In this document: positions 1,442 to 21,009 of the stretch, in pieces | How positions within the stretch are numbered: the first letter of the stretch is position 1 | How the letters are laid out: each line of letters starts with the position of its first letter | Source: a plasmid | Direction: 5' to 3' (one strand) | Sequence record: NZ_CP009216.1 | Length of the DNA stretch: 48,288 nucleotides | Notes under the pieces: generated by a model | Told to the model about the DNA's origin: nothing | Database searches by the model: none | Seen by the model: the letters and a program-made list of their open reading frames with translations, nothing else | Translations under genes and position numbers: made by a program

Positions 1442-1618
1442 ATGGCTGCAACCTTGCTCACTCGACAGCAGGCCGCGGACATTGTCGGCTGCAATGTCCG
1501 CACGATTGACCGGCGTATCCGGTCAGGCGACCTACCGGCCCGACGCTCAGGAAGGATGGTGCGTATCGACCCGGCAGACCTCGACAGGATGTTCAGCGAC
1601 CCGAAACGCTGGGCCTAG
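1442..1618 (+). CDS. xis: excisionase-like / MerR-type HTH DNA-binding protein (58 aa)
   Basis: GGAGAAAGGA RBS 10 nt upstream of the ATG. QQAADIVGCNVRTIDRRIRSGDLPARRSGRMVRIDPADL is a typical Xis/HTH_17 pattern. It is below the 60-aa track cutoff. Its stop overlaps the repressor stop (CTAG). Confidence 0.6.
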   Translation: MAATLLTRQQAADIVGCNVRTIDRRIRSGDLPARRSGRMVRIDPADLDRMFSDPKRWA

Positions 1619-1971
1619 CGTTCCAGCTGCTCGATAAGGTTCAGCGCGGCTGGTAGTAGCCGGTCAGGTAGACCCTCCACCTTGCTGTGGAGGGTCTTTC
1701 TTTGCACGTCGGCGGGGTTGTAGCCGGCTGCGGAGAGAACCGCGTGGGGGTCTGCGCTGACTGCTTTAGCGGCGGCGGTGAGCTTCTCCACAGAGGGGTT
1801 GACGGGTGTGAACTCGCCGTTGATAAGGTGCCCGCCGTCTTCTATGCGCCTGTAGAACGTGGGGGTTATTCCGGCGTTGAGGGCAGCTTGGCGTTTAGAC
1901 AGTCCCGCCTGTTCTCGGGCGGTTTGGAGTATGCGCCCGGGGAGCCATTGTGGGGGCGGGTTGGGTGTCAT
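1615..1971 (-). CDS. XRE-family HTH transcriptional repressor (cI-like), divergent from the early operon
   Basis: 118 aa with HTH QTAREQAGLSKRQAALNAGITPTFYRRIE. It is oriented opposite to the early genes and is followed by an AT-rich promoter region. Confidence 0.75.
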   Translation of the reverse strand: MTPNPPPQWLPGRILQTAREQAGLSKRQAALNAGITPTFYRRIEDGGHLINGEFTPVNPSVEKLTAAAKAVSADPHAVLSAAGYNPADVQRKTLHSKVEGLPDRLLPAALNLIEQLER

Positions 1972-1992
1972 GGGTTTTAGCGTATCGCACTA

Positions 1993-2030
1993 GGTTTGAC
2001 TTTTTTACAAACTGTGTACTAGAGTGCATA
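1993..2030 (+). promoter_or_regulatory. early rightward promoter/operator box A (TTTGACTTTTTTACAAACTGTGTACTAGAGT), with GTGTACT/AGTACAC and AGAGTGC(A/G)TAC repeats nearby
   Basis: TTGACT -35 element with TAGAGT (TAnnnT) about 19 bp downstream, in an AT-rich island of a 65% GC genome. It is paralogous to boxes at 5918 and 11935. Confidence 0.45.
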
Positions 2031-2056
2031 CCAGTACACACCGCAGAGTGCGTACA

Positions 2057-2072
2057 CCGGGCTGCAACCCGG
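2057..2072 (+). promoter_or_regulatory. CTGCAA-loop hairpin copy 1 (CCGGG-CTGCAA-CCCGG); a degenerate second copy lies at 2091-2104
   Basis: Member of the 8-copy hairpin family upstream of GGAGAAAGGA RBSs. Confidence 0.5.
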
Positions 2073-2143
2073 CAAAACGAAGGCCCGGCTGGCGCTGCAA
2101 CACCAACCGGGCAAAGACGCTCACGGAGAAAGGAATTCAGACC

Positions 2144-2755
2144 ATGAGCACCTCTAATCCTAACCACCCCGCCACACAGGGGCAACTAACCAAAAACGAG
2201 CGCGCAGCACGCCTCATCAAGCAGAAGTTCGTGCTCGACATGCTGTACGCCGTCCACAAAGACGAAACCGCCGAGCTCGCCGCGCAGTACGAACCCGGCG
2301 ACAAGGCCGAAATCAAGAACGACAACGGCGTGAAGATTGGCACCGTGTCCATGTCCACCCCGAACAAGAAGGCGGTGCCGGACGATGATTCCGTGCTGCT
2401 GGGCTACGCCGTCGAGCACGGCCACGAGGTCGAGGACATGCTGCCGGCCAACGGCACACCGGAAGCCGCGGAAATCGTGAAGCTGGTCGAGGCCGCAGGC
2501 CGCGAAGACCTGCTGGTGCCGTCCGTGACCGCAGAGGTGGAGAAGGAAGTCTGCCAGGAGGTTCTGAAGGGCTGGGAGTTCAGCGGGGGCAAGGAGCTGC
2601 CGTTGGGCTGGGAGATTCAGGACGCCTCGAGCCCGCGATTCACAGTGGCGAAGGGGCGCAGCGCGCAGGCGAAGGCCGCGTTCGAGCGCGAGATGGAACC
2701 GATTAAGGACGCGCTGGCGCAGTCAGCGTTCCGCGAGATTGAGGAGGGCAAGTAA
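2144..2755 (+). CDS. hypothetical early protein (203 aa), first gene of the rightward operon
   Basis: ATG preceded by GGAGAAAGGA. The longer track ORF 2024..2755 has no RBS at its upstream start. Confidence 0.7.
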   Translation: MSTSNPNHPATQGQLTKNERAARLIKQKFVLDMLYAVHKDETAELAAQYEPGDKAEIKNDNGVKIGTVSMSTPNKKAVPDDDSVLLGYAVEHGHEVEDMLPANGTPEAAEIVKLVEAAGREDLLVPSVTAEVEKEVCQEVLKGWEFSGGKELPLGWEIQDASSPRFTVAKGRSAQAKAAFEREMEPIKDALAQSAFREIEEGK

Positions 2756-2757
2756 CA

Positions 2758-3789
2758 ATGACCATCACCACTAGGAAACCCACCGGGCAGACCTCATGGC
2801 CGTTTATCCTCCTCGCCGGCGTCGAGGGTGGAGGTAAAACTTGGGCCGCTGTCGAAGCAACCGGCATGGAATCGGTCGACAGGGCATTCTTCATCGAGCT
2901 TGGCGAGGGCATGGCCGATGAATACGGGCAGGTTCCGGGTGCTGACTTTGAAATCATCGAGCATGACGGCACCGTGGGGATGATTCGTGAGGCGATTGCG
3001 TGGGCGTCGGCGCACCCCGCTGCTGAAGGCAAGAACAACATGCTCATCTTCGATTCGCTCACCGAATTGTGGGAGCTGATCACGGAGAATGCGCAGGCCG
3101 AGGCAAACCGGCGCGCCACCCGCAAGGGGCGCAAGATTCCCGAGGGTGGCATTCGTATTGACATGGATCTGTGGAACCGGGCTGGCGACACCTGGGAGGG
3201 GGTGATGGGCCAGCTGCGTCGATTCCCGGGTGTGGTGATCGGCACCGCCCGCCTGGAGAAGGTCACGCTTATGGACGATGAGGGCAGGCCGACGAAGGAG
3301 AAGGACTGGAAGATTCAGGCGCAGAAGCGCTTGCCGTACCGGGTGCAGGTGATTGTGCAGGCCCGTCAACCCCGCACCTGGACAATGACGAAGATCGCTA
3401 CCACGGTTCCGGCGTTGCAGCTGCAGCCCGGGCAGGAGCGGACGTTCAACGACTTCTCCGTGGTGAAGCTTTTGGAGACGATGGGGGTGGGGGCGAATAC
3501 CGCGCCGGCGACGTTCCGCGAGGCGGTGCAGGACGATTCACTAGCCGATAATCCACAGCCGAAGCAGAAGCCGCAGCAGGAGGCGACGGCAGAGCAGCTG
3601 GCGGAGTTCGCTCGCAAGGCTACCGAGCAGTCCGACGAGGCGCTGAAGAAGGGGCTGGTGTACTACCAGCGCATGAAGGACACGCAGCGGGTGGAGATTG
3701 TGCAAGCGGAGATTAGCCACCGGGCGCAGCGCAACGTGCAAGACCAACTCGACGGGGAGGTGGTTGAGGGTGAGCTTGTCGAAGCCTAG
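2758..3789 (+). CDS. RecA-like NTPase (AAA_24 / Sak4-like recombination ATPase)
   Basis: Walker A ILLAGVEGGGKTWAA, a Walker B-like hydrophobic-D/E stretch, and an acidic C-terminus. The position is typical for phage recombination genes. Confidence 0.65.
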   Translation: MTITTRKPTGQTSWPFILLAGVEGGGKTWAAVEATGMESVDRAFFIELGEGMADEYGQVPGADFEIIEHDGTVGMIREAIAWASAHPAAEGKNNMLIFDSLTELWELITENAQAEANRRATRKGRKIPEGGIRIDMDLWNRAGDTWEGVMGQLRRFPGVVIGTARLEKVTLMDDEGRPTKEKDWKIQAQKRLPYRVQVIVQARQPRTWTMTKIATTVPALQLQPGQERTFNDFSVVKLLETMGVGANTAPATFREAVQDDSLADNPQPKQKPQQEATAEQLAEFARKATEQSDEALKKGLVYYQRMKDTQRVEIVQAEISHRAQRNVQDQLDGEVVEGELVEA

Positions 3790-3967
3790 CCTGCGCGCCC
3801 TTAGCTGGCGTGACCGCCAGGCGGTGCGGGTTATCGATTGGTGCATTACCCACTTGCCGTCGCGGGAGCTGTCCGAGGCCATTACGGAGGCGTTGAGCGC
3901 GGGGACAGTGCAGGTGCTCCTAAGGCACCTGCAGGAGTGGGAACGGCGCGCCAGGCCAAACACCTAG
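3770..3967 (+). CDS. hypothetical small protein (65 aa), GTG start overlapping the upstream stop
   Basis: In-frame GTG inside track ORF 3698..3967. The upstream part of that ORF overlaps the ATPase gene. Confidence 0.4.
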   Translation: MSLSKPSLRALSWRDRQAVRVIDWCITHLPSRELSEAITEALSAGTVQVLLRHLQEWERRARPNT

Positions 3968-3969
3968 AC

Positions 3970-3983
3970 GGGGCTGCAACCCC
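3970..3983 (+). promoter_or_regulatory. CTGCAA-loop hairpin copy 2 (GGGG-CTGCAA-CCCC)
   Basis: Followed by GGAGAAAGGA at 3997 and the ATG at 4019. Confidence 0.5.
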
Positions 3984-4018
3984 AATTTTGAAGCACGGAG
4001 AAAGGAAAAGCACGGACG

Positions 4019-4402
4019 ATGAAGCGTTCCTACATGAAGCGCAAACCCGCGAAGAACGGGCGGGTGCCGGAGGAAGTGTACGCGGCGGTGATGATGCGCA
4101 ACGGGGGCCGGTGTGAGGTCGGATTCCCCGGTGTCTGCACCGGGCGGGCGGAGGAGTTTCACCACCGCCAGTCGCGGGGGGCGTCGCGCAACCCGCACAC
4201 CATCGGGAATGGTTGCGCGGCGTGCCACGCCTGCCACGACTACCTGACGCACCGCTCCCCGCAGGCGGGGCGCGACGTGGGGGCCGTGGTGTCGCGCCAC
4301 TACACCGGCGACCCGGCGTATAAGCCGATGAAAGTACCGGGCCGGGGCTGGGTGTACCTCACCCCGGGCGGTGGCTACGAGAAAGCCGAGGGGGTGCAGT
4401 AA
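4019..4402 (+). CDS. HNH-family endonuclease
   Basis: Cys/His pattern CEVG..C...EFHHRQSRG..RNPH...NGCAACHACH, consistent with an HNH/zinc-ribbon nuclease. Confidence 0.6.
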   Translation: MKRSYMKRKPAKNGRVPEEVYAAVMMRNGGRCEVGFPGVCTGRAEEFHHRQSRGASRNPHTIGNGCAACHACHDYLTHRSPQAGRDVGAVVSRHYTGDPAYKPMKVPGRGWVYLTPGGGYEKAEGVQ

Positions 4403-4623
4403 TGAGGCAGGTAGGTATACCCGCTGACTTGTCGGCCATGCCCCCACGGGCGTTGAAGGTGTACGCGGTGCTGGCCGCGAATCGGTGGCCCCAAGGGTTG
4501 ACGGTGAATCAGGTATCGGGTCTGACCGGGTTGACGTGGCGCACGGTGGATACCGCGTTGGAGGAGCTACGCGCAGCCGGCTACCTGGACGAGCACAACC
4601 AGCCGGTGGGAGGTGCTGCGTAG
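4402..4623 (+). CDS. winged-HTH DNA-binding protein (73 aa)
   Basis: LTVNQVSGLTGLTWRTVDTALEELRAAGYL. It is paralogous in fold to the N-terminus of the next gene. TAATG start overlap. Confidence 0.55.
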   Translation: MRQVGIPADLSAMPPRALKVYAVLAANRWPQGLTVNQVSGLTGLTWRTVDTALEELRAAGYLDEHNQPVGGAA

Positions 4624-5475
4624 GTGGCGATTTATCGTGACGGCTCCATTGACGAGAACTGGGCGACGATTCCCAACGCCCTGTTTCGTTCCGGGTTCCC
4701 GCTGCGTGTGGTCGCGGTGCTGGGGAACCTGCTCACGCACCGGCCTGACTTCCCAGTGACGGTGAAGCTCATGGCCGAGCAGCTCGGTGTGACCCCGAAG
4801 ACGGTCACGCAAGCGATCAATGACTTGGAGGAGCTGGGGTTGGTTGAGCGTGTCCCGGTTCCTGGGGAGCCTGGCAAGTTTGGGCGGAATGACTACCGGC
4901 TGCGTGAGCAGCGTTTGGTGACGTGGCAACCGGAGGTAAAAAATACCGACGGTGAGGGGGAGCCGGAGGTAAAAATTACCCACGGGCCGGAGGTAAAAAT
5001 TACCCACGGGCCGGAGGTAAAAAATACCTACATAGAAGACCAAGATAAAACACTAGGTAGAACACCAACTTCCCCCCAAGCCCCCCAAGGGGGGCAGGGG
5101 GAGCTGGCCGTCCCGGTGCCGAGCCTCGCGGAGGACTTCGCGGACTGGTACGCGACCTATCCGCGGAAGGTGGGGAAGAAGGACGCGGAGAGGGCGTACA
5201 AGCGGGCCCGCAAAGACGGGGCGACCCGGGAGGAGCTGCTGGCCGGTGTCGAGCGTTCGGTGCGTTCCTGGCGCGTCGAGGGGCGCAGCAAGGACAAGCT
5301 GCCGTACCCGGCCACCTGGTTGAACCAGGGGCGCTGGGAGGACGAGGAAACGCTCGGCGCGGACGTGGGGCAGCGCGGCGATTATCAGCCAACGGCGAAT
5401 GATGTGGCGCAGCAGATGATTCAGCGCATGCAGCAGCAGCGCCAGGGCAACGAGTGGAAGGAGCTTGAGCGGTGA
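4624..5475 (+). CDS. replication initiator / replisome-organizer-like protein with N-terminal wHTH and internal iterons
   Basis: N-terminal wHTH (VKLMAEQLGVTPKTVTQAINDLEELGLVERV). The middle region encodes PEVK(N/I)T repeats from DNA iterons. C-terminal WYATYPRKVGKKDAERAYKRA...YPATWLNQGRWEDEE is typical of phage DnaD/primase-associated C-terminal domains. Confidence 0.6.
   Translation: MAIYRDGSIDENWATIPNALFRSGFPLRVVAVLGNLLTHRPDFPVTVKLMAEQLGVTPKTVTQAINDLEELGLVERVPVPGEPGKFGRNDYRLREQRLVTWQPEVKNTDGEGEPEVKITHGPEVKITHGPEVKNTYIEDQDKTLGRTPTSPQAPQGGQGELAVPVPSLAEDFADWYATYPRKVGKKDAERAYKRARKDGATREELLAGVERSVRSWRVEGRSKDKLPYPATWLNQGRWEDEETLGADVGQRGDYQPTANDVAQQMIQRMQQQRQGNEWKELER
4927..5025 (+). repeat. four 18-bp direct repeats CCGGAGGTAAAAA(T/A)TACC (iterons; candidate origin of replication) inside the initiator gene
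   Basis: Copies at 4927, 4960, 4984 and 5008 with spacings of 33/24/24 bp. They form an AT-rich core inside a GC-rich gene. Confidence 0.6.
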
Positions 5476-5909
5476 CGCCCGAGGAGAAGATTGAGCTTGC
5501 CGGCAACGTGATTACCTACGGCAAGGCGCTGGCACCTGACCGGTTCCCGCGCCCCACGGAGCAGGTGGTGGCCGTGTGGGCCGACGTGCTCGGGTCTATC
5601 AGCGTGCCGAAGGGCGTGTGGCCGGAGGCGGTGCGTGTGTGGGCCGTGGAGATTGCGGGGGAGCGGATGTGTACCCCGCGGGAGCTGAAGCAGGCTGCGC
5701 GGGCTGTGCTGGCGCGGTGGGAATCCGAGCCGGTGAAGCGTGAGCTGCTGGCTGCGCACCGTGAGGCGCGGCGGGTGCAGCGTGACCGGGAGCTGTCGGA
5801 GGGCCGGTTTGGTGAGGTGCGTGGGCACGCAAGGCCGGTGCTGGAATCGCGGCCTGTGGTGTCGGGTGCGGTGTTGGACGCGGTGAAGGATGTTGTAAAG
5901 CGTGTTTGA
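5472..5909 (+). CDS. hypothetical protein (145 aa), GTG start overlapping the upstream stop
   Basis: ORF track entry. It is translationally coupled to the initiator gene. Confidence 0.55.
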   Translation: MTPEEKIELAGNVITYGKALAPDRFPRPTEQVVAVWADVLGSISVPKGVWPEAVRVWAVEIAGERMCTPRELKQAARAVLARWESEPVKRELLAAHREARRVQRDRELSEGRFGEVRGHARPVLESRPVVSGAVLDAVKDVVKRV

Positions 5910-5917
5910 CCTGTACG

Positions 5918-5948
5918 TTTGACATTATTACAAACTATGGAATAGGAT
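5918..5948 (+). promoter_or_regulatory. promoter/operator box B (TTTGACATTATTACAAACTATGGAATAGGAT), preceded by a GTTTGAC direct repeat
   Basis: TTGACA -35 and TAGGAT -10-like element about 18 bp apart. It is paralogous to boxes A and C. Confidence 0.4.
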
Positions 5949-5966
5949 TAGGGCAACAACGAAAGA

Positions 5967-5980
5967 GGGGCTGCAACCCC
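5967..5980 (+). promoter_or_regulatory. CTGCAA-loop hairpin copy 3 (GGGG-CTGCAA-CCCC)
   Basis: Located 16 nt upstream of the ATG at 5996, with an AGAAAGGA RBS between. Confidence 0.5.
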
Positions 5981-5995
5981 AGAAAGGACACCGCG

Positions 5996-6211
5996 ATGAA
6001 AACCACCGCCGACAACCTCACCGCACAGAACATCGTCGACAAGCTCGAAACCGAGATGGCCATGCAGAACGGTTGGGAGTTCAGCACCACCCTGAAGGAA
6101 TCCCTCGAAGACACCGTCCAAGAGCTTATGTACGCCGACGGCTCAGCCCTCCCTGCGTTCCTCCGCGACCTGGCCTACGCCCTCGACAACCTGGCCCTCG
6201 AGCTCGACTAA
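5996..6211 (+). CDS. hypothetical small acidic protein (71 aa)
   Basis: ATG with RBS. The track ORF 5906..6211 extends upstream without an RBS. Confidence 0.6.
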   Translation: MKTTADNLTAQNIVDKLETEMAMQNGWEFSTTLKESLEDTVQELMYADGSALPAFLRDLAYALDNLALELD

Positions 6212-6258
6212 CCGCAACCGCCAGCCTCCGGGCCGGCAATCAGCCCGACCAGCAGGCA

Positions 6259-6306
6259 GGGGAGTGCGAGCCTCCCCACGGGCACTAGGGGCACCCGCCC
6301 CGCACC
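6259..6306 (+). promoter_or_regulatory. intergenic GC hairpin element A (GGGGAG-tgcgagc-CTCCCC, then ACGGGCAC...TAGGGGCACCCGCCCC)
   Basis: Paralogous to elements at 12228, 7605 and 6965. It is terminator-like or a processing-site candidate. Confidence 0.4.
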
Positions 6307-6311
6307 AAGAC

Positions 6312-6325
6312 GGCGCTGCAACGCC
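6312..6325 (+). promoter_or_regulatory. CTGCAA-loop hairpin copy 4 (GGCG-CTGCAA-CGCC)
   Basis: Located 18 nt upstream of the ATG at 6343. Confidence 0.5.
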
Positions 6326-6342
6326 GAGGAAGGAACACAACG

Positions 6343-6627
6343 ATGGACATGCTGCTCGAACGCGCACCCCACATCGCAAAGCACTGGCGGAGGGTGGGTG
6401 ACCACCTCGCGTACGAGAACCTCACCGCGACCCTCGACTTCGACCCGGGGTGCCACGCCATCACGTTGCGCAACGAGGACAACGGGAACACCGAAACGAT
6501 CCGCGTCATGACCGTGCGCAGCGTCGGGGCAGTCCTGCAGACGGCGCGCCTCGCCTACGACCTGCTGGCCGGCCCCGAGGCTCCGCGTGACCCCGAGGTG
6601 GACACGCTCGACGGGTGGGAGCGGTAG
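6343..6627 (+). CDS. hypothetical protein (94 aa)
   Basis: ORF track entry with an RBS. Confidence 0.6.
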   Translation: MDMLLERAPHIAKHWRRVGDHLAYENLTATLDFDPGCHAITLRNEDNGNTETIRVMTVRSVGAVLQTARLAYDLLAGPEAPRDPEVDTLDGWER

Positions 6628-6848
6628 TGAACAGCAAAGCGCAGGAAGCCGACCGGGTGCGCATGGAGCGCGCCCTGCTCGGTGCCGGCATGGACGCGAA
6701 GCGGGCGTTGGAGAGCGCCGCCCGGGTAGCTCCGTACGACGAGCGACTGCGGGCATGGGAGGCGCTGGCAGACGCGGCGTCCCGGGCGAACCAGGCCCTC
6801 GCCGGGTACATGACCGAGTACGGGCTGATGGGGAAGGAGGGCGAGTGA
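6627..6848 (+). CDS. hypothetical protein (73 aa), GTG start overlapping the upstream TAG
   Basis: In-frame part of track ORF 6615..6848. Confidence 0.45.
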   Translation: MNSKAQEADRVRMERALLGAGMDAKRALESAARVAPYDERLRAWEALADAASRANQALAGYMTEYGLMGKEGE

Positions 6849-6964
6849 TGGAGGCTGCAATGCAGGTCGAGTTCTGGAACGCGGTGCTCGACGTGGCGTG
6901 GGTGCTGCTGCCGCAGGAGTGCCTGAACGCCCTGGCGTACAACTAGCGCGGGTGGAACCCTCTC

Positions 6965-6991
6965 CGGTTCGAGGCCGGGGCGCGCACGAGG
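6965..6991 (+). promoter_or_regulatory. intergenic GC hairpin element D (CCGG-ttcgagg-CCGG, then GGCGCGCACGAGG)
   Basis: Weaker member of the hairpin+CGGGCAC family. Confidence 0.3.
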
Positions 6992-7016
6992 TGGCAACAC
7001 CGCCACCACTACTAGA

Positions 7017-7032
7017 CCGGGCTGCAACCCGG
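7017..7032 (+). promoter_or_regulatory. CTGCAA-loop hairpin copy 5 (CCGGG-CTGCAA-CCCGG)
   Basis: Located 18 nt upstream of the ATG at 7050. Confidence 0.5.
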
Positions 7033-7049
7033 AGGAAGGGGACACCACC

Positions 7050-7502
7050 ATGTCCAAGAAGCCAGAATCCGCCCCCATGTCGGAGTACGCCGGCGCAACG
7101 CTAGACGAGCTGCCGAAGACCAACCCGCCCCGCTCATACGACGACGTGAAGCCCTACTGGGGCAATGTTGAGGGCGCGCAGCTGTTCACGGTGAACCAGC
7201 TGGTGCTGGAAACTCCGGAGCTGCTCGACCTGTGGAAGACGCTGGTGGCTGCAGCACACGAGAACCCGCTTGCCGAGGTGGACGGAACAACCATTCGCCG
7301 TGTGGCCGACGGCGACGAGATTAACCGCCAGATTCGGGAGAAGCGGTCCCGCTACGACCAAGAGCGCGAGGCGTTCCACCGACTGATCAACGGCGAGGTC
7401 AAGTACACCGTCTACCCCTCCACCACCAGCTACTACATGGAGCGGGAGAACATCGGATGGGATGAGGACTGGGTGCAGGAGAATTACCCCTCCCAGTCCT
7501 GA
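7050..7502 (+). CDS. hypothetical protein (150 aa)
   Basis: ORF track entry with an RBS. Confidence 0.65.
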   Translation: MSKKPESAPMSEYAGATLDELPKTNPPRSYDDVKPYWGNVEGAQLFTVNQLVLETPELLDLWKTLVAAAHENPLAEVDGTTIRRVADGDEINRQIREKRSRYDQEREAFHRLINGEVKYTVYPSTTSYYMERENIGWDEDWVQENYPSQS

Positions 7503-7604
7503 CCGCCACCGGAGCCGGGCGATACTGCGCCTCGTGCCGACGGCTGGCACACCACACAATCGAATAGGTAGCCCGCGCCGGGCCCGCGCCCTTCACCGGG
7601 TGCG

Positions 7605-7652
7605 CTGCGGTTCAACCCCGCAGGCGGGCACGCAGGGGCGGTGGTGCGTTTT
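7605..7652 (+). promoter_or_regulatory. intergenic GC hairpin element C (CTGCGG-ttcaacc-CCGCAG, then GCGGGCAC GCAGGGG ... TTTT), tRNA T-arm-like
   Basis: A 6-bp stem plus TTCAACC 7-nt loop followed by the conserved CGGGCAC/CAGGG motif and a T tract. It lies in a 293-bp non-coding gap. Confidence 0.4.
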
Positions 7653-7766
7653 GGCGTACTTCAGCACCGCGCAAGGGCGTACCCGCTCACGGGCAATGCG
7701 ACGGCACTATTCCCACCGTCGCGGGAGCGGCACTGCGACCCTGCGCCCCTCACCAACGTCACAAGA

Positions 7767-7780
7767 CCGGCTGCAACCGG
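7767..7780 (+). promoter_or_regulatory. CTGCAA-loop hairpin copy 6 (CCGG-CTGCAA-CCGG)
   Basis: Located 16 nt upstream of the ATG at 7796. Confidence 0.5.
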
Positions 7781-7795
7781 AGAAAGGACACCACA

Positions 7796-7999
7796 ATGAA
7801 ACTGCCCACCTTCACGGCCCTGGGCAACCTCGAAGGCGCACTCACGGGCGCGCTCGAGGAATGCTACGAGGCGCTGCACAGCTACCAAGACGCCGGCCTC
7901 GACAAGCCGTACGTCCACGCGAAGCTGAACCAAGCGGTCGCGGAACTGCGCGAGGCACAAAGCTACCTCCGCGCCTTCCCGGGGGCACCGTCGGCATGA
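7796..7999 (+). CDS. hypothetical protein (67 aa)
   Basis: ORF track entry. The long ORF 7462..8316 in another frame is R/P-rich and spurious upstream of 7996. Confidence 0.6.
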   Translation: MKLPTFTALGNLEGALTGALEECYEALHSYQDAGLDKPYVHAKLNQAVAELREAQSYLRAFPGAPSA

Positions 8000-8316
8000 T
8001 GGGCACGCAAGACCCGCTGTGGGGCGAAACGCACCCGGCAGAAGCCGCCTACTACGCCAACATTGCTGTGCACCGCGGCTGGCACGTCGCAGCAGACCGG
8101 GCTATGGGCTACCTGGCGAACACCGGGCGTGAGTTCACCGCCGACGATTTACGCCGCCTCCTCGACCAGGCCGGCGACCCCACAACCCCGAACGCATACG
8201 GAGGCCTCCTCATGGCCTGGTCGCGCCGCGGGATTATCCGCAAGACCGGATACCGCTGCTCGACGCAGCCGAAGCGCCACGGAGGGGTGAACGCCGTATG
8301 GGTAGGCACCAAGTAG
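7996..8316 (+). CDS. hypothetical protein (106 aa), ATGA start/stop overlap
   Basis: C-terminal part of track ORF 7462..8316, starting at ATGATG. Confidence 0.55.
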   Translation: MMGTQDPLWGETHPAEAAYYANIAVHRGWHVAADRAMGYLANTGREFTADDLRRLLDQAGDPTTPNAYGGLLMAWSRRGIIRKTGYRCSTQPKRHGGVNAVWVGTK

Positions 8317-8477
8317 GGCACTGCCAGTACAGCCGCTGCACGGGGTTCATAGACCCCCACGACCGGCTAGGAGCGTACTTCGGGCTGTGCCCAACGCACG
8401 CCCGAGACGCGGAGACGAAACTGAAACTCAACCGAGACGAATTCAACGCAAGGAACAGGAAACATGGCACTTCCTAA
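8298..8477 (+). CDS. possible small Cys-containing protein (59 aa)
   Basis: ATG with CQYSRC...CPTH spacing. It bridges the gap to SSB and is below the track cutoff. Confidence 0.25.
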
Positions 8478-8961
8478 CATCAACATCGAGGGCGGAACCC
8501 TGGTCACAGACCCGGAGCTGCGCTACACCCCTTCGGGCGCTGCGGTGGCGAACTTCCGCGTCGCTGCCAACAGCCGCCGGTTCAACAAGGAGACGAATCA
8601 GTGGGAGGGCGGCGACACCACGTTCCTCACCTGCAACATCTGGCGGGAGGCCGCGGAGAACGTGGCCAACAGCCTGCAGAAGGGCATGCGGGTGAACGTC
8701 ACCGGCGAGCTGCAGCAGCGCTCCTACCAGACGAAGGAGGGGGAGCAGCGCACCGTGTTTGAGGTGAACGTGCGCGAGGTGGCTCCGTCGCTGAAGTTCG
8801 CCACCGCGCAGGTGAACCGCAACCAGTCGAATGGCGGCGGGGGTCAGCAGCAGGGTGGCTGGGGGCAGAAGAGCGGCCAGACGCCGCAGAATGACCCGTG
8901 GGGCGGCGCGACCGGCGACACGGGCGGGTTCGGCGGCGGCGACCCGGAGCCGCCGTTCTAG
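8464..8961 (+). CDS. ssb: single-stranded DNA-binding protein
   Basis: OB-fold N-terminus, Gly/Gln-rich linker and a C-terminal DPEPPF acidic tail. Confidence 0.9.
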
Positions 8962-9021
8962 GAACGCTCGCCGGGTAAGGTAACGGCGGGAACACAGAAA
9001 ACAACAAGGGAGACGGAACCC

Positions 9022-9441
9022 ATGAATAAGAAAATTGCAGCTTTGGCCGCGGCCACCGCGCTCACCCTCACCGCGTGCGGCGACACCTCCGACGAGGACG
9101 CAGAGCCAGCCACCAGCACCTACGAGTACAAAGACCCAGTAGATGAACAGGCGAAACCTACCCATGATTGGCTCATGGAGCAGGGTGCGAAGTCTGTAGG
9201 GCTGTCAAACGATACATTCCGCAGCGTCGTTATTTTGTCTTGCGGGTACGCGGAACAGGAACAGTCAGAGTCCCTTGAGACAATCCGCGCCAAGGGGGAA
9301 TCTGCAATTCGTGCCCAGGTGAAGGACGTACCGGAGGATAAGGTGACCCCGGCGTTCTTAGCAGCTACCGCTACGGGTTGCCCTCACCTTATTCAAGGGC
9401 AGGGCGTGAATGGTTTGAAGCTAGTTCTTGCGGGGCAGTAG
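9022..9441 (+). CDS. secreted lipoprotein (signal peptide + lipobox LTAC), low-GC moron
   Basis: MNKKIAALAAATALTLTACG. The gene is clearly lower in GC (about 52%), with A/T-ending codons. Confidence 0.7.
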   Translation: MNKKIAALAAATALTLTACGDTSDEDAEPATSTYEYKDPVDEQAKPTHDWLMEQGAKSVGLSNDTFRSVVILSCGYAEQEQSESLETIRAKGESAIRAQVKDVPEDKVTPAFLAATATGCPHLIQGQGVNGLKLVLAGQ

Positions 9442-9641
9442 TGGACAGTGAGCATGACGAGCTGTTGGCCGCTGCCGTTGAGGCGCACCAGGACTACGAA
9501 GGCGCGGTGGAGGCTGCTAAGGCTGCACGCCGTTTGGAGTTCCAGCGAGCCGTAGACGGTGGAGTGAGCCGTGGGCAGATTGCGCGCCGGTTGGGTCGTT
9601 CAACAGCGTGGGTGAGCCGGATTGTTTCTGGCGACCGCTGA
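9441..9641 (+). CDS. small HTH DNA-binding protein (66 aa), GTG start
   Basis: C-terminal HTH VSRGQIARRLGRSTAWVSRIV. Overlaps the lipoprotein stop. Confidence 0.45.
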   Translation: MDSEHDELLAAAVEAHQDYEGAVEAAKAARRLEFQRAVDGGVSRGQIARRLGRSTAWVSRIVSGDR

Positions 9642-9644
9642 CCA

Positions 9645-9673
9645 TTGACAAAATGGCAAGGGTCGGGTAAGTT
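9645..9673 (+). promoter_or_regulatory. strong sigma-70-like promoter TTGACA-17-TAAGTT
   Basis: Near-consensus hexamers with 17-bp spacing, upstream of the antirepressor gene. Confidence 0.5.
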
Positions 9674-9676
9674 AAA

Positions 9677-9716
9677 GGGCACTAGGTCACTTAGACCTGG
9701 TGCCCGATATTTTTGG
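9677..9716 (+). terminator. 29-bp palindrome GGGCACTAGGTC-actta-GACCTGGTGCCC followed by ATATTTTTGG (terminator/attenuator or operator)
   Basis: A 12-bp stem with 1 mismatch plus a T tract, located immediately after the promoter -10. A further hairpin follows at 9718-9745, and an RBS-sequestering hairpin CAACTaataaggAGTTG at 9754-9770. Confidence 0.5.
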
Positions 9717-9774
9717 GCCACGGCGGTGCTACCAACACCCCGTGGCGTGGACTCAACTAATAAGGAGTTGAATC

Positions 9775-10620
9775 ATGGGTCAGTTTGTCATACCCGCAGG
9801 GGCAGAACAATCCCCCACCCCTTTTGACGTGTATCGCCAGGAGCGCGAGGACGGCTCCGAGTTTTGGAGCGCCCGCGACCTCGCCCAACTCATGGGCTAC
9901 CGCAAGTGGCAGAACTTCGAGAACGCACTGAACCGCGCCATTAAGGCAGCGCACAACCAAAAAATGGACGTTACCAGCCTTTTTATCCGATCTAGTAAAA
10001 AGACCGCGGGCCGTCCACAAGAGGACTACGAGTTAACCCGGTTCGCGGCGTACCTCGTCGCCATGAACGGCGACCCTAACAAGCCGGAAGTCGCGTCCGC
10101 GCAGGCATACTTCGCCACCCGCACCCGCCAGGCCGAAACGCAGCAACCCGCACAACTCACGGACGAGGAACTACTCTCCCGTGCCCTCATGGTGGCCAAC
10201 TCCAAGATGGAGCGCCTGGAGGCCGAGAAGGCCGAAGCGGTGGAACTCTCCGAGGCTGCAATGGCGCGTGCCCACGTCGCGGAAGCCGAAGCGGACGAGG
10301 CGCGCCCCAAGGCAGAGGCGTTCGACAGTTTCATGCGAACCGACGGCACCTACTACATGGGTGCAGTAGCGAAAATGCTGGGCATGGGGCAAAACGAGTT
10401 GTTCCGCAGGCTACGGAAGGAACGAGTGCTTATCCCGTCGGGGCACCTGTACAACACCCCGTACCGGCAGTATGAGCGCTACTTTCTGGTTCGTCCGCAC
10501 AAGTATGTTAACGCGGACGGGCGGGAGTTCTTGAAGCACACAACGTACGTGAAGCCGGCGGGGGTTGAGTTTATCCGACGACGGCTGGGGGTTGAGGCTC
10601 CGTTCGTTTCCGTGTCGTAG
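9775..10620 (+). CDS. phage antirepressor (Bro-N/DinD-like N-terminal domain + KilA-C C-terminal domain)
   Basis: N-terminal FWSARDLAQLMGYRKWQNFENALNRAIKAAHNQ (Bro-N/DinD signature). C-terminal MGAVAKMLGMGQNELFRRLRKERVL...NTPYRQYERYFLV (KilA-C). Confidence 0.7.
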   Translation: MGQFVIPAGAEQSPTPFDVYRQEREDGSEFWSARDLAQLMGYRKWQNFENALNRAIKAAHNQKMDVTSLFIRSSKKTAGRPQEDYELTRFAAYLVAMNGDPNKPEVASAQAYFATRTRQAETQQPAQLTDEELLSRALMVANSKMERLEAEKAEAVELSEAAMARAHVAEAEADEARPKAEAFDSFMRTDGTYYMGAVAKMLGMGQNELFRRLRKERVLIPSGHLYNTPYRQYERYFLVRPHKYVNADGREFLKHTTYVKPAGVEFIRRRLGVEAPFVSVS

Positions 10621-10771
10621 TTGGTTTCACGGAGAAGGGGAGTTTTGGGGTAGTGCTGCAACGCTATCCCCGGCCATGTAATTAGAACGTGTGTTCGTGT
10701 ACGTCGCAAATGTGTTCTACCATTGACGGCACCGAGCCGACCGCATAACCACCCGGAGCAGACTTCCTAAC

Positions 10772-10951
10772 ATGATTGAGACAACAGCCCTCACCCCGCC
10801 TGGTGCGCCCTGCAAAGTCACCAGGGCGCACGACCCGAAGGACACCTTCACCGCCTACGAAATAGAGGTCAACGGCCAAACCATCGAGCTAGAACCCTCC
10901 CACGTCGCGGAGCTCTCCCGCGTGCTCACCCTCATTGCGGGTGGGAACTGA
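10772..10951 (+). CDS. possible small protein (59 aa)
   Basis: ATG with a weak GGAG. It is below the track cutoff. The overlapping - strand ORF 10855..11943 is R/P-rich and spurious. Confidence 0.3.
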   Translation: MIETTALTPPGAPCKVTRAHDPKDTFTAYEIEVNGQTIELEPSHVAELSRVLTLIAGGN

Positions 10952-10984
10952 AACCGCTCGCAATACACACCCGATGGTGTTAGT

Positions 10985-11557
10985 GTGGCCGATGTGGAAG
11001 GCGCGAAATGCACATACCAAGACCGGGAGCTGTTTACCAACCCGGCTGGCCGTGACGCACCATCGACAGTGCGTGCGATACAGATTTGCGAAGAGTGCCC
11101 CATCATCAACCAGTGCGCGAAGCAGGCGCTGACAGCCGGCTCAAGTATCGACTTCAGCAACCAACACCCCGCGGTCGGTGTGATCCAGGCCGGGGTGTAC
11201 TGCGACGGCTCGCAGCGCGCAGCTATGGAGCTCGCGGCCCGGGCGGGGGAGCTTCCCCCTGCCGTCGAGGTGACGCCGCGGGCGAAGGCAGGGGACAGGT
11301 GCAAAAGCTGCGGCACGCCAATGGTGCGGTGGACGCGTGACCGTGTGCCGGACGGGTACGCAATGCACCGGGGGCGGGGGTTCTGCACGAACTGCCGTAA
11401 GGCGTACAACGAGGAGTTGGCTCGGGCCCGGGCTAATGGTGAGGTACGGGTGGGGCTGCGGAAGCAGGTTGACCGGAAGCGCCACTCGGCCCCGCCCCGC
11501 CGTGACCGCGAGGTGGTTATCCAGTTCTCGTTGTTTGAGCGGGAGGCGCTGGCGTGA
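10985..11557 (+). CDS. whiB: WhiB-like Fe-S transcription factor with an extra C-terminal zinc ribbon
   Basis: C-x22-ICEECPIINQCAKQAL (CxxC-x5-C) WhiB signature, and a C-terminal CKSCG...CTNC. Confidence 0.7.
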   Translation: MADVEGAKCTYQDRELFTNPAGRDAPSTVRAIQICEECPIINQCAKQALTAGSSIDFSNQHPAVGVIQAGVYCDGSQRAAMELAARAGELPPAVEVTPRAKAGDRCKSCGTPMVRWTRDRVPDGYAMHRGRGFCTNCRKAYNEELARARANGEVRVGLRKQVDRKRHSAPPRRDREVVIQFSLFEREALA

Positions 11558-11940
11558 CGCAGTGGGACTTGAAGTTGCCGTGGGTGAAGCCGCCGCTGTC
11601 GCTCAATGACCGCGAGCATTGGGCTCCTAGGGCGAAGAAGCAGAAGGCGGTGCGGGAGGCGTCGGCGCTGCTGGCTCGGCAGGCGGGTATCCCGCGGTTG
11701 GGGACGGCGAAGGTGCGGCTGGTGTGGTTGGTGGCTGACCGGCGTCGGCGTGACCGGGAGAACATCACTGCGACGCTGAAGCCTGCGATTGACGGGCTGG
11801 TGGACGCGGGTGTTGTTGAGGATGACTGCTGGTGGATTGTGACTGAATCGTCGTGTGCGATTTCGTTGGTAGAGAAGGGGTGTGAGGGGGTTTACCTGCA
11901 GGTTTTGGGTGAGCCGGAGGGCGTTTCGGTTTCCCTTTGA
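11554..11940 (+). CDS. rusA: RusA-like Holliday-junction resolvase
   Basis: RRDRENITATLKPAIDGLVDAGVVEDD matches the RusA D-x-D-N...K...D...DD pattern. GTGA overlap. Confidence 0.6.
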   Translation: MTQWDLKLPWVKPPLSLNDREHWAPRAKKQKAVREASALLARQAGIPRLGTAKVRLVWLVADRRRRDRENITATLKPAIDGLVDAGVVEDDCWWIVTESSCAISLVEKGCEGVYLQVLGEPEGVSVSL

Positions 11941-11966
11941 CATTATGACAAAGTGTGTAATAAACT
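11935..11966 (+). promoter_or_regulatory. promoter/operator box C (TTTGACATTATGACAAAGTGTGTAATAAACT)
   Basis: TTGACA -35 and TAAACT -10-like element. It is a 17-bp quasi-palindrome, paralogous to boxes A and B. Confidence 0.4.
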
Positions 11967-11988
11967 AGGGGTACAAACAAAGAGCAGA

Positions 11989-12002
11989 GGGGCTGCAACC
12001 CC
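11989..12002 (+). promoter_or_regulatory. CTGCAA-loop hairpin copy 7 (GGGG-CTGCAA-CCCC)
   Basis: Located 15 nt upstream of the ATG at 12017. Confidence 0.5.
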
Positions 12003-12016
12003 AGAAAGGACACAAG

Positions 12017-12211
12017 ATGGCCACCTACGCCACCACCGCCGACTACATCGAGCAGAACATCACCCCGGGCCTCGGAGATGTCGAGCTCACCAGCGAGCAA
12101 GCGCAGGAAGTCGCCCACCGCATGACCGAATGGAACGAGGACGGCCAGCTCGTGGAGCGCGAGGGCATGGACTTCTGGGACGTCGTAGCCGACGTCCGCG
12201 GCGACAACTAG
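12017..12211 (+). CDS. hypothetical acidic protein (64 aa)
   Basis: ORF track entry with an RBS. Confidence 0.6.
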   Translation: MATYATTADYIEQNITPGLGDVELTSEQAQEVAHRMTEWNEDGQLVEREGMDFWDVVADVRGDN

Positions 12212-12227
12212 CCCGACAAGGCAGGCA

Positions 12228-12262
12228 GGCGGGTTCAAGCCCCCGCCACGGGCACCAGGGCC
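12228..12262 (+). promoter_or_regulatory. intergenic GC hairpin element B (GGCGGG-ttcaagc-CCCGCC, then ACGGGCAC CAGGGCC)
   Basis: Closest paralog of elements A and C. Confidence 0.4.
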
Positions 12263-12287
12263 AACCGGCCCGCACAACCACATAGAC

Positions 12288-12301
12288 CGCGCTGCAACGC
12301 G
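12288..12301 (+). promoter_or_regulatory. CTGCAA-loop hairpin copy 8 (CGCG-CTGCAA-CGCG)
   Basis: Located 18 nt upstream of the ATG at 12319. Confidence 0.5.
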
Positions 12302-12318
12302 GAGAAAGGAACCCCGTC

Positions 12319-12504
12319 ATGTACCACGGGAACAACGAAGGCCTACGCGCCCTCGACATGGCAGAACAACGCCTCAAAGAAGCCCGCACCACCGCCACCC
12401 CAGCGGAACTGCCCGGCCTCAACCTCGCGCTGAACATCGTCCGCGACACCGCCGACGATGTGGCGCCCGCCCGCTCCCTCCACGACATCCTGCAGGGGGC
12501 CTAG
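12319..12504 (+). CDS. hypothetical protein (61 aa)
   Basis: ORF track entry with an RBS. Confidence 0.55.
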   Translation: MYHGNNEGLRALDMAEQRLKEARTTATPAELPGLNLALNIVRDTADDVAPARSLHDILQGA

Positions 12505-12506
12505 CC

Positions 12507-12677
12507 ATGACCAACCGCGCAATCATCTTCCTCATTATCGCGGCACTCGCTGCCCTGTCGGTGCCCGTAATCATGGCCGGCACCGGCGCAATCCTCCCGG
12601 TTGTTTACGCCCTCGCGGGCCTGCTGATTTACGAGCTGGCGACCGACCCCTACCGGAACGGAGACACCAATGAGTAA
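12507..12677 (+). CDS. small membrane protein (56 aa, 2 predicted TM)
   Basis: MTNRAIIFLIIAALAALSVPVIMAGTGAILPVVYALAGLLIY. It ends with the shared NGDTNE junction and is below the track cutoff. Confidence 0.4.
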   Translation: MTNRAIIFLIIAALAALSVPVIMAGTGAILPVVYALAGLLIYELATDPYRNGDTNE

Positions 12678-13200
12678 CGAAACCGCACGCCTAGCCCGTG
12701 AGTGGGCTGAATCCCGCAACCCGAACAGCCTGACGGGTGCCGCTAAGGCTGCTCGCGAGCACATCATGGCCACCACAGACCCACTGACGATGGCGGACGT
12801 GGAGTGGAACGACGAGAAGCACTACCTGGCCGGGGCTGTAGACGCTGATGGGCACGAGGTGGTCATGCTGGATAAATTGCATGGAAATATCCGTGTTTGC
12901 GACGTAGACCAGATGGGCCTGGGTCGCCCGGTGCTGGAATCCCCGAAGACCATCACCCCGAACGGGAAGCGGTACGAACTGCGCGAGGTAGGGGCGCCGG
13001 AAGAACCGACCCACCCGGAAACGCTGGTGACCGAGCAGGACTACGCGAACGCGCCCGCCGGAACCGTAGTCGCGGAATCCCATTACTTTGCATGGCAAAA
13101 GAACCAATTCGGAGCCTGGCGCAAGGTTAAAACCCGGCTTACCGACCGCGAGATGGCAGGCACGGAGCGGCAGGTGCTGCGCTGGGGGTGGGGCAAGTGA
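12670..13200 (+). CDS. hypothetical protein (176 aa)
   Basis: ORF track entry. ATG embedded in the junction cassette. Confidence 0.6.
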   Translation: MSNETARLAREWAESRNPNSLTGAAKAAREHIMATTDPLTMADVEWNDEKHYLAGAVDADGHEVVMLDKLHGNIRVCDVDQMGLGRPVLESPKTITPNGKRYELREVGAPEEPTHPETLVTEQDYANAPAGTVVAESHYFAWQKNQFGAWRKVKTRLTDREMAGTERQVLRWGWGK

Positions 13201-13529
13201 CCACCAACATCACCCCGGACAAGGCCCGCGAGCTACTCAACACGGCACGCCAAGAAGCGGGGGACGGGCAACGCCCCGTGACCGTGGCCGCGAAGTACGC
13301 CCCGCTGGTAGAAGCCACCCCCGCACTCGCGGAACTAGTCGCCAGCATGCACTACGAGTACGCGGTGCAGACAGGCATCGACGACAACGGTGATTACAGA
13401 CACATGTACGACTGGCGACCGACCCACGACGAAGCCGCTGAAATGGTGGCCCTACTCAAGTGCATGAACCCGGACATTAAAACCCGCATTGTCCGCCGCT
13501 TGGTGGGGGAGCCGGAGGTAGTCGAATGA
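13188..13529 (+). CDS. hypothetical protein (113 aa; alternative GTG start at 13197)
   Basis: ORF track entry. Confidence 0.55.
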   Translation: MGQVTTNITPDKARELLNTARQEAGDGQRPVTVAAKYAPLVEATPALAELVASMHYEYAVQTGIDDNGDYRHMYDWRPTHDEAAEMVALLKCMNPDIKTRIVRRLVGEPEVVE

Positions 13530-14312: not shown

Positions 14313-14596
14313 GCACGTATCTGTACTTGCGGTGCGAATCGCACAACCCGCCAATCGAAAACGACGATGAATCCGGCCAACACCTACACGACCTAGAGCA
14401 AATCTGGGCCGACCTCGACAACCGCGACCGGATCGCCGCCGCCTGGCGCGACGGCATGATCCCCGAAGATTACTTCCGTCTCCACACGGCCCGGTTCCTC
14501 GTCGCGCACCCACACTGCAAAATCGGGGTCGTAGACGAATACGGACGCACCCACCACCCAGACGGCACCACACGAGACGAGGGGGAACAAGCATGA
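14309..14596 (+). CDS. hypothetical protein (95 aa)
   Basis: ORF track entry. Confidence 0.5.
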   Translation: MSTYLYLRCESHNPPIENDDESGQHLHDLEQIWADLDNRDRIAAAWRDGMIPEDYFRLHTARFLVAHPHCKIGVVDEYGRTHHPDGTTRDEGEQA

Positions 14597-18847: not shown

Positions 18848-18863
18848 GTCGTATCGTGGGGGC

Positions 18864-19512: not shown

Positions 19513-19519
19513 CTGGTAC

Positions 19520-19562
19520 GCGAACCCCGCCCTCTACGTTTGTATGGCGGGGTCTTCGCTTG
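19520..19562 (+). terminator. terminator-like hairpin CCCCGCC-(15-nt loop)-GGCGGGG then TCTTCGCTT, at the end of the early operon
   Basis: A 7-bp GC stem followed by a T-rich run. Confidence 0.35.
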
Positions 19563-20525: not shown

Positions 20526-20531
20526 CGCACC

Positions 20532-20933: not shown

Positions 20934-21009
20934 ACCAGCAGGTAAAGCCCTGACCCGCCCAGGCGCACAGAAGGGGGCGGAACACACAACCACAGCACAG
21001 GAGAACCCA

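Follow-up and report, generated by a model that had tools for sequence, protein, structure and literature searches.

The window examined here, the whole 48.3-kb stretch of record NZ_CP009216.1, is a prophage with a G+C content of 64.6%. Its early region carries many copies of a short hairpin with the six-nucleotide loop CTGCAA and a complementary stem of variable sequence, most of them close to a ribosome-binding site (RBS). This hairpin is best described as a cis-acting RNA leader element of the early (lytic, non-structural) units in a clade of temperate Corynebacterium phages, where almost all early transcription or translation units have it shortly 5' of their RBS. Judged by sequence, the element in the window is itself a temperate phage of the Corynebacterium type, because the homologues of its AAA_24 protein are named by their sources as proteins of C. 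flavescens, C. pseudodiphtheriticum, C. phocae, C. ulcerans and C. nuruki. The early genes form a rightward array that starts from a divergent promoter and encodes a 203-aa protein, an AAA_24 RecA-like ATPase, nuclease-like, MarR/HTH and DUF7432 proteins, and further SSB, antirepressor, WhiB-like and RusA-like proteins. Genes of nucleotide metabolism and structural genes are located 3' of the early genes. The positions of the hairpins and of the features around them are collected in Table 1.

Eight copies had been listed in the original prediction, which was made from the letters of the window, and all eight are present with the stems described there (GGGG/CCCC three times, CCGGG/CCCGG twice and three others once each), except that two of the stems are one base pair longer and read CGGCG/CGCCG and CCGCG/CGCGG. 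A ninth copy near 10650 had been called degenerate. This is not the case: its loop is perfect and its stem has nine base pairs, two of which are G.U. The window has 10 + strand CTGCAA hairpins with stems of at least 4 bp, whereas 1000 dinucleotide shuffles gave 0.245 on average and 3 at most, and the count is thus above chance in a shuffled control. For the early region the corresponding values are 9 found and 0.053 expected. CTGCAA is also the commonest hexaloop in the window (10 cases), and the top hexaloop in any of 100 shuffles did not exceed 7. A CTGCAA hairpin at 574-587, inside the integrase gene, is probably a chance match. The restriction of the hairpin to the + strand and to the early region is borne out by the nine early copies and by the gene-strand bias in relatives. 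The late genes have no copies, and the late intergenic gaps hold unrelated hairpins and ordinary Shine-Dalgarno sequences.

For six tightly placed copies, 14-17 nt separate the end of the stem from the ATG, and the Shine-Dalgarno sequence AG(A/G)AAGG directly abuts the stem. The direct succession of hairpin and RBS claimed for six copies therefore stands, with the distance corrected from 15-18 nt; the G or GG in the GGAGAAAGGA quoted as the RBS belongs to the stem. The copies at 2057 and 3970 are found 71 and 35 nt, respectively, from the start codon. The second leader copy (2083-2112) matches in position the nested leader hairpin of relatives, which has an outer helix and a 3' bulge AUAAAU and is located upstream of the gene for the 203-aa protein. 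The long-stem copy at 10647-10670 lies 27 nt past the stop codon of the antirepressor gene and is conserved in L121, a 91% relative. The original observation is thereby confirmed, and it is stronger than first stated.

Table 1. Hairpin copies, promoter-like sites, structured elements and selected genes. Positions are those of the window unless a relative is named.
Feature	Position	Strand	Remarks
Tyrosine integrase gene	158-1384		
Small HTH_17 excisionase-like gene	1442-1618		
cI-like repressor gene	1615-1971	-	Leftward
Early promoter-like site TTGACT-18-TAGAGT	1996-2025	+	Divergent from the cI-like repressor gene 1615-1971(-)
Hairpin copy 1, CCGGG-CTGCAA-CCCGG	2057-2072	+	First early operon leader, 31 nt past the -10 box of promoter 1996-2025
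Hairpin, second leader copy; 12-position stem (10 Watson-Crick pairs and 2 C.A)	2083-2112	+	CTGCAA at 2095-2100
Hairpin, GGGG-CTGCAA-CCCC	3970-3983	+	35 nt upstream of nuclease-like gene 4019-4402
Nuclease-like gene	4019-4402		Rightward early array
Promoter-like site TTGACA-18-TAGGAT	5919-5948	+	Spacer sequence (ttacaaact...) common to the other two sites
Hairpin, GGGG-CTGCAA-CCCC	5967-5980	+	18 nt past the -10 box of promoter 5919-5948; abuts AGAAAGGA; ATG 5996
Structured element of ~60 nt	6243-6301		
Hairpin, CGGCG-CTGCAA-CGCCG	6311-6326	+	Abuts AGGAAGGA; ATG 6343; structured element 6243-6301 precedes
Structured element of ~60 nt	6946-7007		
Hairpin, CCGGG-CTGCAA-CCCGG	7017-7032	+	Abuts AGGAAGGGG; ATG 7050 (DUF7432 gene); structured element 6946-7007 precedes
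Hairpin, CCGG-CTGCAA-CCGG	7767-7780	+	Abuts AGAAAGGA; ATG 7796; end of a 290-nt non-coding stretch
Hairpin, long-stem copy GGGGTAGTG-CTGCAA-CGCTATCCC	10647-10670	+	9 bp including 2 G.U; no RBS after
Promoter-like site TTGACA-18-TAAACT	11937-11966	+	
Hairpin, GGGG-CTGCAA-CCCC	11989-12002	+	22 nt past the -10 box of promoter 11937-11966; abuts AGAAAGGA; ATG 12017
Structured element of ~60 nt	12211-12271		
Hairpin, CCGCG-CTGCAA-CGCGG	12287-12302	+	Abuts AGAAAGGA; ATG 12319; structured element 12211-12271 precedes
Structured elements of ~60 nt, relative L123	~6493-6560, ~12367-12440		
Structured elements of ~60 nt, relative L125	~6738, ~7762, ~11752		

Relatives were obtained by protein-anchored retrieval from IMG/VR, metagenomes and assemblies, which gave about 90 loci (designated by L and a number). 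About 35 of these bear 3-9 hairpin copies each, and all of them belong to the Corynebacterium clade, with an AAA_24 identity of at least ~45%. No hairpin copies were found in the more distant actinobacterial phages L154-L201, and the motif is also lacking in four fairly close relatives, L118, L120, L128 (C. phocae) and L132 (C. nuruki). The syntenic relative L116 (the same locus as L046, met in a pattern scan of IMG/VR) has six copies with differing stems at a protein identity of 40-55%. Motif-bearing prophages are also present in C. flavescens CP009246 (near 2.06-2.08 Mb, 8 copies) and in the C. ulcerans strain GCA_024341845.1 (CCGCAA type). Near-identical DNA was found in the GenBank phage collection neither for the window nor for L116, and the portal protein of the window is only ~30% identical to those of Streptomyces and Gordonia phages.

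After duplicates were collapsed, the relatives provided 144 distinct instances, of which nearly all are on the gene strand; their inner 4-bp stems are of 36 different kinds. Stems of 4 bp (60 instances), 5 bp (47) and 6 bp (26) predominate, and 11 instances have 7-11 bp. In an alignment of 67 distinct hairpins all four inner pairs each show GC, CG, AU and UA types; these hairpins were preselected for at least 4 bp, so that the percentage of paired positions is circular there. In the first 22 loci the gene strand has 108 CTGCAA hairpins and the opposite strand 3, and the one-mismatch neighbours of the loop are all at background (no more than 7). The loop is invariant in the window and strongly constrained among its relatives.

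A non-circular comparison is provided by the nuclease-like gene (4019-4402), because the region upstream of its orthologue was taken in every locus. The hexamer occurs in 25 distinct upstream regions, 23 of which have at least four complementary flanking pairs, and the 3970 copy of the window has its orthologous position in 23 relatives. At least 12 different stems are found at this one position, for example TACGG/CCGTG, GACGC/GCGTC, GCGA/TCGC, TGGCGG/CCGCCA, AATTGGTGC/GCACCGATT and GGGG/CCCC. It follows that selection acts on the structure and, independently of the stem, on the loop sequence. The original prediction of selection on structure is upheld at three levels: compensatory stems occur within the phage, among the ~35 relatives and at orthologous positions. 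Relatives carrying CTGCAA without stem complementarity, which would have spoken against it, are at this position the exception.

The loop is not identical in all phages. About 30 loci have CTGCAA, four have CCGCAA (L131, which is a C. ulcerans prophage, L151, L152 and L153) and one has CGGCAA, giving the consensus C-N-GCAA. Each of the CCGCAA loci has 5-6 such stem-loops with differing stems, of which 3-5 are located upstream of a Shine-Dalgarno sequence. CGGCAA is the loop of both copies in L127, including the orthologous nested leader hairpin. In L144 two CCGCAA matches are present, both in coding sequence. Mixing of loop types at RBS-linked copies was seen in no phage examined. Because the stems have diverged to saturation, a neutral loop position would be expected to be mixed. 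A purely thermodynamic requirement would not give a second position that is specific to the lineage. Since the variants are lineage-specific yet uniform per phage, a sequence-specific reader is favoured over a purely structural stabiliser, and this uniformity is the main argument for a reader that co-varies with the phage (or host) lineage.

The hairpins are elements of transcribed leaders. Exactly three rightward sigma-70-type sites were found by the promoter scan in 1900-12600, and each is followed by a hairpin 31, 18 or 22 nt past its -10 box. Across all phages, 57 of 157 instances (36%) have a -35 match and a TANNNT box, the box ending 8-32 nt (peak 19-21) before the stem, compared with 2 of 157 random positions. 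This spacing implies that many copies start about 12-16 nt into the primary transcript. The three promoter-like sites of the window also share their -35 box and spacer, TTGAC(A/T)TT(A/T)T(T/G)ACAAA(C/G)T(A/G)TG, and the shared spacer suggests a common operator for the cI-like repressor. The distance from the stem to the Shine-Dalgarno core does not exceed 15 nt in ~75% of the instances and extends up to 38 nt in the rest, in agreement with the predicted tie between hairpin and RBS. The sequence on either side of the hairpin is rich in A and C and poor in G, and 68% of the stems have an A immediately 3' of them. Three special forms recur: the nested form upstream of the 203-aa gene (outer helix of 6-8 bp, 3' bulge AUAAAU), a long-stem version upstream of the SSB gene, and the long-stem copy after the antirepressor gene. 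In thermodynamic folds the hairpin forms in six of eight window leaders and the Shine-Dalgarno sequence stays largely unpaired; the hairpin itself therefore leaves the RBS exposed.

The intercistronic copies in the lineage of the window, L121, L123 and L125 are preceded by a covarying structured element of ~60 nt, which was found in this lineage only. Its helix P1 is GCCCG/CGGGC, with GGCCG/CGGCC or GCGCG/CGCGC in other copies; inside it are a linker of 12 nt and a T-arm-like hairpin whose loop is UUCAAGC or UGCAAGC. P1 is followed by A-CCA, A-CUA or A-CGA and then by a covarying third hairpin. No Rfam or ARAGORN match was obtained for the element. It may be a tRNA-like minihelix serving as a processing (punctuation) signal. 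Processing at such elements may provide 5' ends in place of the promoters that precede other copies. A further tRNA-like fold (7571-7630) was noticed in the 290-nt non-coding stretch 7503-7795, with an acceptor-like helix GCCCGC/GCGGGC and a T-arm CTGCGG-TTCAACC-CCGCAG; ARAGORN makes no call for it, and in folding energy it does not surpass shuffled sequence.

The reading that we prefer, though we give it somewhat less than even odds, is that the hairpin is a shared RNA operator whose loop is read by a lineage-matched trans-acting factor, coordinating the translation or the mRNA fate of the early genes. Each early unit would have a sigma-A-type promoter of its own or follow an intercistronic structured spacer, and would continue with an A/C-rich single-stranded stretch, the 4-6-bp hairpin, 0-15 nt and a strong Shine-Dalgarno sequence (AGAAAGGA). 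The loop would be recognized sequence-specifically by a factor matched to the phage lineage, most probably an RNA-binding protein encoded by the phage. Bound beside the Shine-Dalgarno sequence, this protein would set the translation and/or the lifetime of all tagged early mRNAs together. We infer RNA, not DNA, to be the active form. Since the asymmetry of wobble pairs gives no support, the case for action at the RNA level must come from the orientation of the hairpins and their linkage to the RBS.

In its logic such an early-gene regulon would be similar to that of T4 RegA, and in its anatomy to the hairpin-peptide pairs of MS2 or lambda boxB. Among operators adjacent to an RBS, those of the MS2 and PP7 coat proteins, T4 gp43 and E. 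coli thrS are single-copy; T4 RegA is one regulator acting on many early mRNAs, and its targets are unstructured. The hairpin described here resembles these operators in its location a few nucleotides 5' of the RBS, at which a bound protein would compete with the 30S subunit, and many mRNAs could share one regulator as with RegA. It differs from the former in being present in many copies and from the targets of RegA in being a hairpin.

Several observations weigh against such an operator. Among the open reading frames within ~10 kb of the anchor gene, profiling of presence and absence singled out no convincing candidate for the reader; the families specific to motif-bearing phages were only acidic, paralogous or uncharacterised small proteins. 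No RNA-binding or ribonuclease domain was found among the early proteins by Pfam, PHROGs and NCBIfam. The loop type also tracks the host group, and the reader may therefore be a host factor. The internal non-Watson-Crick pairs comprise six G.U and four A.C, which is no bias of the RNA type and makes this asymmetry uninformative as a proof of RNA action; moreover, two leader copies have C.A mismatches on the gene strand. The z-scores of single-sequence folding are not significantly better than those of shuffles in this GC-rich context. Finally, the CUUCGG hairpins of T4 are a precedent for an invariant loop and variable stems without a protein reader. An RNA reader was considered too, but a conserved hairpin with the complementary loop UUGCAG was found in only three scattered cases.

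The precedent of T4 and the failure of profiling to turn up a reader lead directly to the strongest of the rival explanations, a factor-independent structural hairpin. It would act as a 5' stabiliser against decay by RNase J or RNase E, and/or as an insulator keeping the Shine-Dalgarno sequence unpaired, and the loop, which contains GCAA, would be kept for an intrinsic folding property, as in T4 C(UUCG)G. The location of the hairpin near the 5' end of primary transcripts and the mostly unpaired Shine-Dalgarno sequence in the predicted folds are what such a function would demand. We nevertheless regard it as unlikely to be the explanation. The stems are weak, with predicted energies of only -4.7 to -8 kcal/mol. 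We know of no special stability of a C-N-GCAA hexaloop, and GCAA in this register cannot form a closed GNRA tetraloop. The second loop position, uniformly U, C or G in each phage lineage, is left unexplained, and the four close relatives without the motif manage without a stabiliser of this kind.

The comparison with T4 can be made more closely. The T4 hairpins (X)2-8 CUUCGG (Y)2-8 are intergenic, and one is a 5' stabiliser for the gene 32 mRNA, according to PMC8948821, which cites Tuerk 1988 and Gorski 1985. Both sets comprise many intergenic copies with an invariant loop and variable complementary stems, and some T4 copies are 5'-proximal and mRNA-stabilising. The hairpins in the window and its relatives are nevertheless not of the T4 type, since their loop is CTGCAA, CCGCAA or CGGCAA and not C(UUCG)G, a loop of exceptional thermodynamic stability. 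In contrast to C(UUCG)G, the hexaloop C-N-GCAA has one position that switches between lineages and is uniform within each, and it is tightly linked to Shine-Dalgarno sequences and early promoters, in phages of actinobacterial hosts.

A second rival, which appears improbable, is a nut site resembling boxB, where the nascent-RNA hairpin would recruit a phage antiterminator to the polymerase starting from each early promoter and so allow read-through of terminators. In size and shape the fit is good: like boxB of the lambda type, the hairpin has a short GC stem (4-5 bp) and a purine-rich loop of 5-6 nt with a GNRA-like GCAA, it is phage-specific, and one copy is located shortly past each early promoter. 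The loops of boxB are likewise specific to the phage lineage in lambda, P22 and phi21. In addition, a terminator-like hairpin with a T-run precedes a copy in L116, and the nested long-stem version between the first early gene and the next occupies a position like that of nutR. At 6 nt, the loop C-N-GCAA is one nucleotide longer than the conserved 5-nt GNRA-like loop of boxB. On the other side, no boxA was found 5' of the hairpin, where no flank position is conserved across lineages and there is an A/C-rich bias only. Nor was a small arginine-rich antiterminator like N found: in the ~10 kb to the left and right of the anchor gene, the motif-bearing phages have no conserved basic small protein that is peculiar to them. 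Lambda has two such sites, whereas here there are 8-10 per phage genome, most of them against a Shine-Dalgarno sequence, and antitermination needs no such placement. Few intrinsic terminators are present between the units of the window.

Quite improbable, in our view, is a signal for an endoribonuclease, either a target by the Shine-Dalgarno sequence for late shut-off or a maturation site defining mRNA ends. T4 RegB, which cuts early mRNAs, would be its model. The hairpin does adjoin the Shine-Dalgarno sequence and is confined to early mRNAs, and the intercistronic copies in the window lineage follow the covarying tRNA-like minihelix, itself a possible processing site. No nuclease candidate specific to motif-bearing phages was found, however, and promoter-proximal copies need no processing for their 5' end. 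For the candidate roles of the original prediction (binding site of a regulator, processing site, 5' stabiliser generating monocistronic mRNAs) it is relevant that many copies are promoter-proximal leader elements, so that several of the units are separate transcripts anyway.

The least credible rival, action at the DNA level as a recombination linker or mobile cassette, a single-stranded DNA hairpin site, a palindromic protein site or a U-less terminator, is compatible with the absent bias of G.U over A.C, with cassettes preceding diverse small ORFans in a mosaic early region and with two copies that are terminator-like on the minus strand, but the shared sequence (6 nt and a Shine-Dalgarno sequence) is too short for homologous recombination, a double-stranded binding site would keep the sequence of its arms and not their complementarity, the asymmetric loop is tied to gene direction (108 to 3), the position follows the downstream RBS and not the upstream stop, and the copies stand between promoters and genes, a place in which a terminator would do harm. 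This position and the lack of a U-tract exclude a plain terminator; no + strand copy was returned in the terminator scan, and the 3' flanks are A/G-rich Shine-Dalgarno sequences.

The cassettes invoked in that explanation are modelled on the promoter-early stem-loop (PeSL) elements of T4-type phages. In these the stem-loop is located upstream of or within the promoter, or just past the -10 box before the transcription start, and acts as a terminator or attenuator (PMC2839356). The two are alike as repeated cassettes of promoter, GC stem-loop and Shine-Dalgarno sequence before small ORFans in a plastic early region (PMC2839356). The hairpin described here is nevertheless not a PeSL, because it begins 8-32 nt past the -10 box, inside the transcribed leader, and its loop is invariant, unlike the loops of PeSLs.

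The original prediction had also pointed to the start-associated sequences (SAS) of Cluster K mycobacteriophages, and this likeness holds for position only. Both are repeated in one orientation upstream of the starts of non-structural genes in actinobacteriophages, and host or phage factors were proposed for SAS and the extended start-associated sequences (ESAS) as well (PMC3203893). The SAS is a 13-bp asymmetric consensus, GGGATAGGAGCCC, located 3-7 bp upstream of start codons (PMC3203893). It is absent from the window: 10 matches at no more than three mismatches were found, where chance alone would give 16, and there is no genuine SAS among them. The ESAS are imperfect inverted repeats of 17 bp, and in the analysis by their own authors the deviations give no support for pairing at the RNA level (PMC3203893), whereas compensatory changes maintain pairing in the CTGCAA hairpins. 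Thus in the SAS a conserved 13-bp sequence contains the Shine-Dalgarno sequence, while here the sequence is free except in the loop and it is the pairing that is conserved.

Other identities were considered. The loop is not a mimic of the anticodon stem-loop of tRNA-Cys (GCA), because such a loop has 7 nt with an invariant U33 ahead of the anticodon, whereas the loop here has 6 nt and, in some lineages, C or G in place of the U. With helix 42 of 16S rRNA (GGGGUCUGCAACUCGACCCC) only the hexamer is common, the loop length differs and position 2 varies. Rfam 15 gave no match at the gathering threshold in the window and seven related loci, and nothing relevant at E <= 10 in 1900-12500. Full-text literature searches retrieved no description of the motif. 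We class it as a loop-conserved phage leader or operator hairpin.

A scan of one genome per species for SSSS-CTGCAA-SSSS-(0-1 nt)-AGAAAGGA gave 64 single matches, which is about chance, and none in Corynebacterium; the pattern is too strict, as most relatives have a spacer of 3-10 nt. In IMG/VR, 1 of 117 matches to CTGCAA-N4-6-AGAAAGGAG had a stem, a weak one, which sets the chance rate at ~1%. A separate observation concerns phage contigs of low G+C content (29-46%) and Clostridia type, L012, L023 (1157, 2003), L043, L062, L084 and L111, in which a conserved early leader before unrelated genes ends in CCGGCTGCAACCGGAGAAAGGAG. This is identical to the 7767 copy of the window with its Shine-Dalgarno sequence, and the identical 22-mer is CCGGCTGCAACCGGAGAAAGGA. 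These contigs have further CTGCAA stem-loops in a divergent cI-like gene, with synonymous compensatory changes (ATCCG/CGGAT and CATCTG/CAGATG). The leader of this Firmicutes type cannot be claimed as a homologue, since its stem never varies and one family is within the chance rate of ~1%.

A wider version of the preferred operator reading is more doubtful. In this version the whole early programme would be under a phage-encoded reader of the loop (a translational regulator, antiterminator or nuclease) that co-evolved with the C-N-GCAA operators. The CUGCAA, CCGCAA and CGGCAA lineages would then be orthogonal post-transcriptional circuits, the RNA counterpart of the immunity groups defined by repressor and operator, and in the window lineage some promoters would have been replaced by tRNA-like punctuation creating equivalent 5' ends. 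If a loop-specific reader exists, it would provide compact, multi-target post-transcriptional control of phage early genes in Actinobacteria, where phage RNA regulation is, to our knowledge, almost unexplored. The hosts include medically relevant species, as the C. ulcerans prophage bears the CCGCAA variant, and synthetic control in Corynebacterium could then draw on the natural orthogonal loops as ready-made parts. The hairpin is of use even if no reader exists, since it helps the annotation of these prophages by marking true gene starts and early transcription units, and its instances (at least 144) form a clean natural data set of covariation.

Some neighbouring features of the window and its relatives should be mentioned. 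The first 25 nt of the window are the 3' end of a tRNA gene (ggttcaattcccggcggctccacca) adjoining the tyrosine integrase gene; together they are probably the attL of a prophage inserted in a tRNA gene. Small paralogous protein families encoded at 12670-13200 and 15088-15444 (paralogues at 13188-13529, 14593-14841 and 14831-15091) were found only in motif-bearing phages among the compared loci. One of these families has the motif PTMADVEWDDEKHYLAEA...TPTGKRY (phrog_25349), and the others are acidic with AGLLAPDLP. The co-occurrence of the paralogues with the hairpin may simply reflect shared ancestry. In the motif-free prophage of C. phocae (L128, CP009249) the early/middle region 18042-21038 has Pfam matches to CRISPR_assoc (PF08798) and a Csf3-like family. 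Upstream of the antirepressor gene (9775-10620) of the window, positions 9640-9775 contain a promoter-like site TTGACA-17-TAAGTT, immediately after it a strong terminator-like hairpin with a T-run (9677-9705), and then a second hairpin. An attenuator, or a small RNA that controls the antirepressor, is a possible reading of this arrangement.

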